Shown in pieces: positions 21,345-54,398 of a DNA stretch of 64,000 bases (position 1 is the stretch's first letter; each line of letters opens with the position of its first letter). The DNA lies in the NCBI GenBank assembly GCA_017474265.1, contig JAFVHZ010000103.1, forward strand, positions 614 through 64,613, given 5' to 3'. Source of the stretch: Bacteroidales bacterium. Lineage in GTDB: Bacteria > Bacteroidota > Bacteroidia > Bacteroidales > UBA932. Position numbers and translations under genes: made by a program. The notes below the pieces were generated by a model. The model was not told the origin of the DNA. It did no database searches and saw only the letters and a list, made by a program, of their open reading frames with translations.

Positions 21345-21447
21345 ATACAGACAACGGCCTGCTGATTCCGACGATCCTCCCCGCTTACGGGTCCCCTCCC
21401 TTTTCGGGAGCCAATGTCGTTCATAATCAGCAGGCCGCTGTCTGTAT
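21345..21447. repeat. Branched palindromic element (family B, copy 3)
   Basis: 23-bp arms with one mismatch (ATACAGACAACGGCCTGCTGATT / AATCAGCAGGCCGCTGTCTGTAT) around a two-hairpin head that is 53/56 identical to the reverse complement of copy 4. Confidence 0.9.
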
Positions 21448-21505
21448 CGGTGTCTGGGATTGCCTAATCAGGAAGACTCTGCCATCTATCAGATCGGCAA
21501 TCCAA

Positions 21506-21615
21506 CTGTCCCGGAAGAATAGTGTATTTTTCCCGGGTCGCAGTGCCGAATCACATCAAAAGCCGTAAAATGATAACGCGACCCGGAAAATCAGTGCGAT
21601 TCTTCCGGGTCGCGT
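21506..21615. repeat. REP-like hairpin doublet (family A), units 72 bp apart
   Basis: TGTCCCGGAAGAATAGTGTATTTTTCCCGGGTCGCA and CGCGACCCGGAAAATCAGTGCGATTCTTCCGGGTCGCG. Confidence 0.85.
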
Positions 21616-21631
21616 CAGACGTGTTATTATG

Positions 21632-22477
21632 TTATTCTGTCGGTACGAGTTCAAAGAAAGAACTGATTTCCTGCTGATCGATGGCCTGGCGTACATTGAA
21701 CCTCTTCACCTGATCCATGTAGCCGTTCTTTGTTACCTTGATCTCGATCTGCACGTCGCGTGAGTTTGCATAAGTCAGACCGAGGATGTTGAACGACCTT
21801 GTCTCTTCAAACGGTGTCGGGCCGAGATAGAGTTCGTTGGTGTTCTTGACTTCGGCCGGTATGCTCGAAATGACTCTCCAGAATACCCTGGCTCCCCTTG
21901 GAGCAGAGTCAAAATACCATCTGATGATGGTTTGTTCTAAAGTTGTGCCACCTGGATTGTCTCGCGATACCATATCATTCGCACCTCCTGTAGGTATTGT
22001 CGGGTCATTTACATATTGTTGGCTTCTTTCCAACGAACAGAACACACCTTCAGGGTATGTTATATTCAACGGGACGATGCGACCATTATAGTTCTTTACT
22101 TCTCCTCTCGTTGGGGTTATTGTCGGGCGGAATTCAACTTCGGACTTTTCGTATCCGTTTTTTATAAAAATGAAAGTTGAAGATGAAAGATCCGCACTCT
22201 TAGCATAAAAATTGTTTATGTTTTTATGTGGTGATGTGTCGATAATGTTTTTTACAGGAACACTAACTTTCATCGGTGTAATGCCCAGATATTTACCATC
22301 CATGTAGACAGATGCACCTTGCGGCTCCGAGTTGATTTCTACTTCTTTTGAAGTAGGTTCCATAGGAGGCAGACGACGCTCTTGTTGTCTTCTGACACCG
22401 CAAGAAGCAACTATGAATAGCGTGGTGCATAACGCAAGAAGGATTAGAGATGTTCTTAATAACAGTAACTTTTTCAT
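21632..22477 (-). CDS. PEGA-domain lipoprotein
   Basis: Lipobox IVASC, PEGA motif INSEPQGASVYMDGKYLGITP and a second PEGA-like unit FDSAPRGARV...LGPTPF. TAACTTTG at 22496-22503 upstream. Confidence 0.8.
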   Translation of the reverse strand: MKKLLLLRTSLILLALCTTLFIVASCGVRRQQERRLPPMEPTSKEVEINSEPQGASVYMDGKYLGITPMKVSVPVKNIIDTSPHKNINNFYAKSADLSSSTFIFIKNGYEKSEVEFRPTITPTRGEVKNYNGRIVPLNITYPEGVFCSLERSQQYVNDPTIPTGGANDMVSRDNPGGTTLEQTIIRWYFDSAPRGARVFWRVISSIPAEVKNTNELYLGPTPFEETRSFNILGLTYANSRDVQIEIKVTKNGYMDQVKRFNVRQAIDQQEISSFFELVPTE

Positions 22478-22567
22478 GGTTTGTTTTGTTTTTTGCAAAG
22501 TTACCGTTTGGGGGTGGAGGGTTAATGACAAATCAGTATGGTAATTTTACTTATCCGTAAAAACATT

Positions 22568-22780
22568 TTACATCTCTCCAGTGATCTCATCGGAGTAGTA
22601 TTTGAAGAAATCGTGTTTCAAGGCACAGGAAATTCTCATCAGAAGATCGGTATTGATTGATTTCTGCTGAAATATATAATATATGTTAGGACGTTCGCAG
22701 TTGATCTTTCTTGCAAGCCATGCTGGTGTCCTTTCCTGTCTTTCCAGTACTTCCTTGACGATTCTTCCTATATGTACCAT
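22568..22780 (-). CDS. Small XRE-type helix-turn-helix protein
   Basis: HIGRIVKEVL...WLARKINCERPNIYYIF...SINTDLLMRISCALKHDFF, the typical Bacteroidales 70-aa HTH. Confidence 0.85.
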   Translation of the reverse strand: MVHIGRIVKEVLERQERTPAWLARKINCERPNIYYIFQQKSINTDLLMRISCALKHDFFKYYSDEITGEM

Positions 22781-51956: not shown

Positions 51957-51959
51957 TAA

Positions 51960-52055
51960 TTTCATCTGATATAATATGGAGGAGACATCGCACCCCCGCG
52001 TAGGGGGTGGCTGCCGAAGGCAGACGGGGGTCTCCGGAATATTATACAGATGAAA
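51960..52055. repeat. Branched palindromic element (family B, copy 5)
   Basis: Arms TTTCATCTG-A-TATAATAT..GGAGAC / GTCTCC..ATATTATA-CAGATGAAA; head CACCCCC-GCGTA-GGGGGTG-G-CTGCC-GAA-GGCAG. Confidence 0.85.
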
Positions 52056-52071
52056 AATAATCAATAGAATA

Positions 52072-54273
52072 ATGAATAGGATATTATCAGCAATTGCAAC
52101 AATCGTCCTTCTTGCAGGATGCGCAGCCAAGCCTGCGGGAGAAGTGACCGACGTCCAGACCCTCAAGTCTCCGGACGGAAACATGGAGATGACCTTCCAT
52201 CTCACTGAAGACGGAACGCCTCAGTACACACTCAACTACGGTGACCAGAAGGTGATCCTCCCTTCAGACCTCGGATATGAACTCCGCGGTGTCCTCAAGG
52301 CCCAGAAACTGGTCTACAACGCAGACGGTTCTGTCTCTAAGGAAGACCGTGAGCCATGCAACTCCTTCCATGACGGATTCGCTCTGGAGAGTGTCGAGAC
52401 AGGCACCTTCGACGAGACATGGGAGCCTGTCTGGGGAGAAGAGTCTGAAATCCGCAACAACTACAATGAACTTCTTGTGAACCTTGTCCAGACTTCTACC
52501 GAAAGGAAGATGGCCATCCGTTTCCGTCTCTACAATGACGGTCTCGGATTCCGCTATGAGTTCCCTTACCAGAAGAACCTCAGTTACTTCGTGATCAAGG
52601 AGGAAATGACACAGTTCGCCCTTGCCGGCGACCACACGGCATGGTGGGTTCCCGGAGACTATGACACGCAGGAGTACAACTTCACGGAGAGCCGTCTTTC
52701 AGAGATCGCAGGCAAGATGGAGAACTCCATCCCTGGAAACGACTCACAGACCCCGTTCTCAGTGAACGGTGTGCAGACATCCCTTCAGATGCGAACGGAT
52801 ACTGGCCTCTACATCAATATCCATGAGGCTGCCCTGGTGGACTACCCATGCATGCATCTCGAACTCGATCCTAAGACCTTCACATTCGTCTCTCACCTCA
52901 CCCCTGACGCACAGGGATGGAAGGGCCGTCTTCAGACTCCTTGCACTTCACCTTGGAGAACAGTCCAGGTAGCTCCAAGCGCGACTGCACAACTCGCATC
53001 ACGCCTTGTCCTCAATCTCAACGAGCCATGTGCGTTCGAGAACACAGACTGGATCAAGCCTGTCAAGTATATCGGAGTATGGTGGGAAATGATCACAGGC
53101 AAGGGATCCTGGAACTATACTGACGATTTCGCTTCTGTACAACTCGGCAAGACCGACTATTCAAAGGCGACACCTAACGGCCGTCACTCGGCGAACAACG
53201 AGAAGGTGCGCCGTTACATCGACTTCGCGGCAGAGCATGGCTTCGATCAGGTTCTCGTGGAAGGATGGAACGAGGGCTGGGAAGACTGGGCCAACTGCAA
53301 CAAGGACTATGTATTCGACTTCGTCACTCCATATCCTGACTTCGACATCGAGGCCCTCAATAAATATGCTCACTCTAAGGGCGTAAGACTTATGATGCAT
53401 CATGAGACATCATCGTCTGTACGCAACTACGAGCGTCATATCGATCAGGCCCTCGAACTCATGGACAAATACGGCTACAATTCGATCAAGAGCGGTTATG
53501 TAGGCGACATCCTCCCTATCGGAGAGCACCACTACAGCCAGTCCATCATCAACCACTATCTCTTCGCCCTCAAGAAGGCTGCAGAGCATGAGGTGATGGT
53601 CAATGCCCATGAGGCAGTGCGCCCTACAGGTCTCTGCAGGACATATCCTAACCTCATCGGAAACGAGTCTGCACGCGGTACCGAGTATCAGGCATTCGGC
53701 GGCACCATGCCTCATCATGTGACCATCCTTCCGTTCACCCGTCTCAACGGCGGTCCTATGGACTATACTCCGGGTATCTTCGTGATGGATATAGGTAAAC
53801 TTACAGACGGCAGGAACAACTCATGGGTGAATGCTACCATTGCTAACCAACTCGCTCTTTACGTGACCCTCTATTCTCCTCTTCAGATGGCTGCTGACCT
53901 TCCTGAGCATTATGAGCAGTTCATGGATGCCTTCCAGTTCATCAAGGATGTGGATGTGGACTGGATCCAGTCCAAGTACCTCCTTGCGGAGCCGGGCGAA
54001 TATGTCGTGATAGCACGTCAGGGCAAGAAGGACGGACAGTGGTTCTGCGGCGGTGTGACCGACGACCAGAAGCGCACACTTGAAGTGCCGATGAACTTCC
54101 TTGACGCAGGAAAGACTTATGAGGCTACCCTTTACCGTGATGCGGATGACGCCCACTACAAGGACAATCCTCAGGCTTATGTGATCGAGAAGATCGATGT
54201 GACTGCAGATACTGTTCTTCCTGTGACCATGGCTCCTGGCGGCGGCTTCGCCATCAGTTTTGAAGTCAAGTAG
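52072..54273 (+). CDS. susB: GH97 alpha-glucosidase/glucoamylase (SusB-like)
   Basis: [45 protein letters not shown] and GPMDYTPG. Confidence 0.92.
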
Positions 54274-54284
54274 GCGGTTCTTTC

Positions 54285-54398
54285 AATAAGACAGTTCCCG
54301 CTGGATAACAATAAGGTGACATGCCACCCCCGGCCAGGGGGTGCCTCCCGAAAGGGAGGCGGGGGTCATCGGTTGTTACCAGCGGGAACTGTTTTATT
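54285..54398. repeat. Branched palindromic element (family B, copy 6)
   Basis: Arms AATAAGACAGTTCCCGCTGG-A-TAACAA..GGTGAC / GTCATC..TTGTTA-CCAGCGGGAACTGTTTTATT; head CACCCCC-GGCCA-GGGGGTG-CCTCCC-GAAA-GGGAGG. Lies between convergent genes. Confidence 0.87.

Follow-up and report, generated by a model that had tools for sequence, protein, structure and literature searches.

Forked hairpins in the window and across the genome

The window analysed here, a stretch of 64 kb on contig JAFVHZ010000103.1, belongs to an uncultured Bacteroidales metagenome-assembled genome (MAG) from the ruminant gut (the query genome G000; 2.35 Mb, 72% complete) and harbors six copies of a branched repeat, which we refer to as forked hairpin. 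Four copies (c1 to c4) are intergenic and two are located in frame within murB. All six had been predicted from the letters of the DNA, and inverted-repeat arms as well as folds with z-scores of -7.0 to -10.3, computed against dinucleotide shuffles, were found at these positions (Table 1). In the fold of the window copies, a long closing stem leads through an asymmetric internal loop to an inner stem of 6 bp and two small hairpins. Inner stem and hairpins are designated below as the head, and the two sides of the closing stem as the arms. The heads of the pair 21345/24293, i.e., c1 and c2, share 53/56 nt with differing arms, as is evident from direct reading of the sequence. The C-GAA-G and C-GAAA-G loops described earlier do occur on the G-rich strand, and on the C-rich strand they are cUUCGg-type loops. 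The c2 locus is also present in two metagenome contigs of the same species (L145 and L147).

Table 1. Coordinates of the forked hairpins, the RAYT-like gene and its flanking hairpin doublets in the window.
Feature	Position	Strand	Description
Copy c1, head type A	21345..21447	+ (C-rich strand)	between lptB and low-GC island; arms 23 nt, 96% complementary; -54.5 kcal/mol, z -8.35; nhmmer type A match
c1 arms	21345-21367/21425-21447		inverted repeat, 23 nt, 96%
Copy c2, head type A, in opposite orientation to c1	24288..24391	-	between RAYT-like gene and efp; arms 32 nt, 88%; z -10.34
c2 arms	24288-24319/24360-24391		inverted repeat, 32 nt, 88%
Copy c3, divergent head type B	51960..52055	-	between alpha-amylase-family and GH97 genes; z -7.55; nhmmer type B 22.4 bits
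Copy c4, head type B	54285..54398	-	fills spacer of convergent GH97 and DPP-IV genes; z -8.23; best type B match, 54.3 bits
c4 arms	54285-54304/54379-54398		inverted repeat, 20 nt, 95%
murB site 1 copy, head type D, in frame	9616..9703	+	nhmmer type D 56.5 bits
murB site 2 copy, head type C, in frame	10122..10250	+	129 nt = 43 codons; arms 18 nt, 94%; z -7.00
RAYT-like Y1 HUH nuclease gene, candidate mobiliser	23161..24114	+	317 aa; Pfam Y1_Tnp 24.8 bits (cut-off 23)
Hairpin doublet, far end of low-GC island	21510..21609	.	inverted repeat I2; belongs to RAYT-like unit, not to forked family
Hairpin doublet	24086..24185	.	inverted repeat I3; overlaps 3' end of RAYT-like gene

Seeded nhmmer profiles run over the G000 assembly gave 57 non-overlapping copies of about 90-130 nt with four head types, A (4 copies), B (about 22), C (about 19), and D (about 12). 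This number is a lower bound, since several G000 contigs terminate within copies, and because contigs break at them the forked copies matter for the assembly of MAGs. The density is about one copy per 41 kb genome-wide vs. one per 11 kb in the window, and the hundreds of copies per genome that had been extrapolated from the window turn out to be tens. Reversed-pattern controls had no match in any of the 61 genomes of the genus panel, and the pattern is well above what chance would give.

The four head types are mosaics built from common hairpin modules. Each head consists of a short inner stem, in which the GAC...GTC pairs are always kept, one hairpin that varies with compensation, and one hairpin that is invariant. 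In type B heads (n = 18), 98.1% of the cells are paired, compared to 88.5% in shuffles and ~50% in slid controls, and compensatory change is seen at six pairs, located in inner stem and first hairpin; none of 500 shuffles reaches the observed values. The second hairpin of 17 nt is invariant across the type B heads. The arms are complementary to each other within a copy (0.83-0.88), but between copies their identity of 0.48-0.51 is that of random sequence (0.49). Nevertheless, one inner arm segment is common to copies on C107, C180, C238, and C25, which are unrelated loci, and another one to copies on C29 and C168. Many arms open with an A-run and close with a T-run, and counts of the mismatch types within the arms picked out no single functional strand.

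The type B motif is present in 12/61 and the type C motif in 35/61 genomes of the genus panel, and in an order-wide sample of 251 genomes, G000 included, type C was found in G000 and in one of the other 250. Neither the type B nor the type C motif had a match in the viral contigs of IMG/VR. Rfam gave no gathering-level match in the window, and permissive scans brought up nothing beyond generic long-hairpin microRNA models, none of which scored half its threshold. The family is undescribed, as no matching published family was found. Judged from sequence comparison, the forked hairpins probably form a genus-restricted superfamily of small non-autonomous mobile DNA hairpins.

Two further observations concern hairpins outside this dispersed set. 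Three type-C-like heads stand ~305 nt apart at the start of a contig of G035 (C2:60-702) and form a tandem array, in a genome without any match to the RAYT-like protein. In the window itself, positions 48695-48766 between two genes fold into a hairpin with 23-bp arms (91% complementary, z -7.1), whose loop is unrelated to head types A-D.

Insertion sites and the behaviour of arms and heads

Comparison of filled and empty sites in strains and species shows that the copies are inserted DNA. At the dut-murF junction G000 contains an insert of 111 nt, whereas the same-species contig L181 (its second contig piece) has an empty junction, in which the stop is directly followed by the start. Likewise, in most genus relatives with a readable junction no more than 0-5 nt separate the stop of dut from the next start, or the two overlap. 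Between the focA-like gene and the DUF2147 gene, the convergent stop codons abut in the diverged strain L257, whereas G000 has ~121 nt with 19-bp arms and a head. At both of these sites, which are the two clean filled/empty pairs, the arms came in together with the head, because the empty alleles have no hairpin, and at focA-DUF2147 nothing was copied from the flank. The element can thus arrive with both arms. Moreover, six relatives have a compact junction at rnfA and G000, G071, G050, and G056 a filled one, and both murB sites are polymorphic within the genus. The C198 site is empty in three relatives, and three others carry a different hairpin family there: downstream of the counterpart of gene G000:C198:433-1536 in G056, G059, and G002 (L261, L262, and L264), the spacer that is occupied by a type C copy in G000 contains a palindromic element with long arms and a conserved tip of another kind. 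Copy c3 is missing at the syntenic junction of L063, whose GH97 protein is 87% identical, which is a weakly informative empty site; the other metagenome GH97 relatives are from other species without conserved downstream synteny and yielded no further empty site for c3. Exact-protein look-ups for rubrerythrin, rnfA, and atpK gave no empty allele in the same species. Taking census and site comparisons together, the predicted nature of the repeat as a dispersed, non-autonomous inserted element with presence/absence polymorphism is supported: further copies exist in the genome, relatives differ in their presence, and Rfam holds no match. It is very likely that the forked hairpin is a mobile inserted element.

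The copies sit 20-50 nt from stop codons and occupy convergent spacers far more often than divergent ones (16 vs. 3, p = 0.004). Nine copies lie in frame within genes, namely two in murB and one each in metH, aroK, aroE, prmC, an amidohydrolase gene, and two rluD-like pseudouridine synthase genes, all of which keep an open frame and their Pfam domains. The murB open reading frame (9382-10755) encodes 457 aa with MurB_C and FAD_binding_4, while insert-free orthologs of the genus have 333-350 aa. The MurB of G008 has no insert at site 1, and site 2 is free of an insert in G013, G008, and G043. At site 1, a type D head in G000 and a type C head in G013 are enclosed by an identical outermost 5-bp stem. 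The family favours the 3' ends of genes and tolerates in-frame positions in protein loops. In this way, essential enzymes of a major herbivore-gut lineage (MurB, MetH, AroK, AroE) gain loops of 30-45 residues, which bears on annotation and on protein evolution. The same MurB loops of some relatives (L015, L018, and L019, the murB genes of G002, G043, and G050) contain a second small palindromic insert of ~30 nt, translating to, e.g., RHCE-RS-VAI or CHSERSEES, which makes tandem arrays in some intergenic spacers (L064, L212).

The preference for gene ends could also mean that the head is kept for a function at the RNA level, as a terminator, as a 3'-end stabiliser of the upstream mRNA, or as a small RNA, with its spread being secondary. 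Many loops of the C-rich strand are of the UUCG type closed by C-G, this strand is the sense strand in 20 of the 30 informative copies, the head shows strong covariation, and contigs of the same species that were retrieved for dut and rnfA carry identical copies, all of which agrees with such a role. However, the preference for the sense strand is weak (p about 0.1), the head can flip between strains while its neighbours remain unchanged, relatives lack the element at the same junctions, the nine in-frame copies cannot be terminators, and no Rfam family matches. We therefore regard selection for an RNA function as unlikely to be what maintains the heads.

A second alternative concerns the origin of the arms. 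The heads might be mobile cassettes that land in the tips of pre-existing host hairpins, mainly intrinsic terminators, so that the arms would be native DNA. This would explain why the arms of one copy resemble those of another no better than random sequence does, why many of them start with an A-run and end with a T-run, and why copies concentrate at places where terminators are expected, i.e., in convergent spacers. Plain terminator hairpins stand at the atpK and efp sites in other species, and the efp-lptB spacer of L146 holds a headless hairpin without a forked tip, whose arms are homologous to those of c1 and c2. The different head types inside one outermost stem at murB site 1 and the hairpin-1 variants that differ among four species at rnfA would fit as well. 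Against this, both clean empty alleles are free of any hairpin, the same arms recur at unrelated loci (C107/C180/C238/C25 and C29/C168), and the sites in coding sequence cannot have held terminators. Landing in host hairpins is rather unlikely, and a mobile element that can bring both of its arms along is preferred.

What happens to the arms after or during insertion can be read from several loci. The dut insert consists of short inner arms and the head, followed beyond the right arm by an inverted copy (19/23 nt) of the final dut codons. Such an inverted copy of the gene end was significant (p <= 0.005) in 3/38 tests, at dut, rnfA, and C47:6787 of G000, and in G050 it is found at dut and metG, where it matches in each case the flank of G050 itself. 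In all five robust cases the native flank is located 5' of the C-rich strand. Five species share the inverted flank copy at the orthologous rnfA site, and this copy therefore has a single origin. In four species, the head-proximal arms of this site are only ~60% identical and thus far more diverged than the flanks, but each pair still matches, and the type of the first hairpin differs as well. In G062 the head at this site has been lost and a perfect palindrome is left. At atpK, the head of L188 is inverted between unchanged arms in comparison to L189, L190, and G000. The locus L231 (G050:C23) shows a local tandem rearrangement of the element downstream of rnfA, where behind one complete type B copy there is a partial head and, for the second time, the inverted segment of the rnfA end. 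Loss and inversion of the head, stem growth, and insertion are thus readable from strain comparisons, which makes the family a natural system for such events.

The original prediction had offered two origins for the arms, strong covariation or generation as an inverted copy of the target flank. Both find support, at different sites: covariation at the orthologous rnfA site, where the arms of four species are diverged yet paired, and flank copying at the three G000 loci and the two G050 loci named above. Flank copying as the general source of arms was rejected, as only 3/38 tests were positive and arms and head arrived at focA-DUF2147 without it. Since it is significant in so few tests, the inverted flank copy is either a minority outcome or visible only where the stem reaches coding sequence. 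Template switching is known to homogenise the arms of inverted repeats, to invert the spacer, and to expand the repeat (PMC8604942, PMC13100816, PMC8794818). Because homogenisation, spacer inversion, and expansion into the flank are published signatures of this process, we attribute the behaviour of the arms to it, and template switching appears, on balance, to be what shapes them.

This raises the question of whether an enzyme is needed at all. A stalled nascent strand could switch to another copy, copy the head, fold back, and return, and one replication error would then make the element together with the inverted flank copy. The dut insert has the expected composition, as it combines carried inner arms and a head with an inverted copy of those 23 nt of dut that precede it (19/23), and the constant position of the native flank 5' of the C-rich strand (5/5) would be expected as well. 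The messy tandem partial duplication at the rnfA site of G050 also points in this direction, and hairpins are known from the literature to arise and to grow by template switching. However, ~57 copies with near-identical heads of several types, and dozens in sister species, are many for a rare error of multiple steps, the focA-DUF2147 insert lacks a flank copy, and a 17-nt hairpin that is invariant in all type B heads points to recognition of a specific sequence. Spread by replication errors alone is quite unlikely, and mobility with recognition of the head remains our preferred reading.

A RAYT-like protein as candidate mobiliser

Between lptB and efp, the window contains an island of low GC content (21610-24200; 40%) with genes for a PEGA-domain lipoprotein, a small helix-turn-helix protein, and a RAYT-like protein, bounded by c1 and c2. 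The cargo of the efp-lptB spacer varies between species, and in L146 a 76-nt hairpin is the whole spacer, while the RAYT-like gene is found there in several species. A near-identical gene is present in one Bacteroidales MAG from roe-deer rectum, the sole such MAG in the contig scan. The protein scores 30.7 bits with NCBIfam REP_Tyr_transpos (NF047646), which is under the equivalog cut-off of 80, and the HxH residues H52 and H54 as well as Y109 are invariant in 19 RAYT-like homologs. Sequence and profile searches against PDB chains gave no match. The AlphaFold2 model (pLDDT 89.7), however, was most similar in Foldseek to 4er8_A, the E. coli TnpA-REP bound to a REP hairpin, followed by the TnpA proteins of IS200, IS608, and ISDra2. 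The only RVT_1 reverse-transcriptase match of the assembly is a separate locus, G000:C243:1982-2716, with an open frame of 544 aa.

A link between this protein and the forked hairpins is suggested by their arrangement. Type A copies in inverted orientation stand on both sides of the gene, ~170 nt downstream of it and 1.7 kb upstream. A type A copy follows the G008 homolog in the same order and orientation as in G000, and fragments of type C heads follow the homologs of G009 and G063. Furthermore, type B occurs in 9/9 genus genomes with a homolog at E < 1e-80 vs. 3/52 others, a count without phylogenetic correction.

In our preferred reading, each copy is a conserved recognition head on a stem that keeps its pairing rather than its sequence. 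In place, template switching between the arms would maintain complementarity during drift, would sometimes extend the stem into the flank and thereby write an inverted copy of the gene end, and might sometimes invert the head. An enzyme that recognises the folded head would catalyse, in trans, the movement to new sites, and the best candidate for this enzyme would be the RAYT-like Y1 HUH nuclease encoded at 23161-24114, together with its paralogs. In its most far-reaching form, which we put forward as an improbable scheme, the family would be a structure-defined transposon: only the forked tip would be recognised, and the unit moved would be whatever pairs beneath it. Insertion would be one-ended, with the 5' end of the folded C-rich strand being joined to a free 3' end, e.g., of a nascent strand just past a stop codon, and the 3' end of the element being extended by fold-back synthesis on the flank. 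If this were true, the target would be written into the stem as an inverted copy at each insertion, and the stems would be nested fossils of earlier sites.

Several observations weigh against movement by this enzyme, against the scheme, or against both. The two clean filled/empty pairs reveal no unambiguous target-site duplication and no fixed end sequence, and the inverted flank copy is significant in 3/38 tests only. Hairpin doublets of its own, which are not dispersed, directly border the RAYT-like gene, and homologs in other species are flanked by their own, different doublets. As these doublets are the immediate flanks and are not dispersed (three sites in G000), they are the more natural substrate of the enzyme. 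The other three RAYT-like paralogs of G000 have no forked copies nearby. G035 harbors 10 type C copies without any match to the RAYT-like protein, type C is also present in G001, G054, and G060, which have only distant RAYT-like paralogs, and the co-occurrence of type B with close homologs is confounded by shared ancestry. Finally, the UUCG-type loops of the conserved heads and the 20:10 bias of the sense strand fit an RNA-level role as well. The doublet hairpins share a GCGACCCGGAA-type core, which G000 contains at only three sites, window 3464-3501, 21510-21609, and 24086-24185. The candidate assignment of these GCGACC-type doublets as a dispersed REP of the RAYT-like gene was rejected for this number of sites, and the idea that each of the four RAYT-like paralogs stands beside its own head type was rejected for G000.

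Of the suggestion that an HUH enzyme moves these repeats, with single-stranded DNA as their putative active form, the RAYT/IS200 Y1 fold and the kept HxH and tyrosine residues are borne out, whereas the link to the repeats is circumstantial in view of the gene's own doublets and of type C in genomes without a close homolog. HUH-mediated movement of forked hairpins is plausible but unproven, and it is possible, though we lean against it, that the RAYT-like family is the mobiliser. If the link is true, the range of RAYT-type systems would grow to include Bacteroidales, where their substrate would be of a new kind; if it is false, repeat spread and hairpin maintenance would be driven largely by replication template switching.

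Comparison with known systems

The forked family resembles REP/REPIN-RAYT systems in that its palindromic repeats are short, dispersed, and placed at gene 3' ends, in that a Y1 HUH gene of TnpA-REP fold stands beside inverted copies and is kept at one chromosomal locus (efp-lptB) in several species, and in a lineage-restricted, mostly vertical distribution. However, in REPINs the arms are the conserved REP and the loop varies, whereas the forked family has a conserved tip on copy-specific arms. Listings and alignments contain no conserved GTAG/CGTC foot and no shared tetranucleotide at the stem feet, and the copy number is in the tens rather than in the hundreds. With regard to the RAYT itself, G000 differs in having four diverged paralogs, in ~190 extra C-terminal residues of the protein, and in the other, non-dispersed hairpins that immediately flank the gene. 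A closer parallel within the phylum is the Bacteroidetes TnpA-Y1 subclass 2.6 (RAYT group 5), whose Y1 HUH genes are flanked by unusual secondary structures, identified by hand, with further copies in the genome (Quentin et al., 2018; PMC6006769). Proteins of this subclass have a mean length of 179 aa, the motifs NH[LIV]H, WQ, and YIH[QN]NP, and flanking "atypical secondary structures" (PMC6006769). The protein encoded at 23161-24114 has 317 aa, G-E at the WQ position, and a Y-[IV]-L-R-N-P motif; it is set apart from the subclass by these protein motifs and its length alone.

MITEs (miniature inverted-repeat transposable elements), such as Correia/NEMIS, ERIC/IRU, and the palindrome-associated elements derived from IS200/IS605, are likewise non-autonomous, hairpin-forming, intergenic, and polymorphic between strains. 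Unlike the forked family, for which none of these was found, they possess terminal inverted repeats that are conserved, a target-site duplication that is defined, and a recognisable parent insertion sequence, and no larger element with matching ends was seen near any forked copy. Integron attC sites are also folded single-strand recombination substrates with short conserved boxes in otherwise free self-complementary sequence. Their conserved boxes, however, are at the outer ends and the variable part is in the center, which is the opposite layout, and there is no integrase or cassette context at the forked copies. Rickettsia palindromic elements (RPEs) are palindromes of ~100-150 nt that occur in intergenic regions and in frame in housekeeping genes at tolerated surface positions, as the forked hairpins do. 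They belong to a different phylum and, compared by description only, an RPE family is conserved over its full length and has no constant tip on variable arms. Thus, REP/REPIN-RAYT systems and Rickettsia palindromic elements are nearest in behaviour to the forked hairpins, which lack those defining features of REPs and MITEs that were tested. With a constant tip on free arms, the forked family reverses the usual logic of bacterial miniature repeats.

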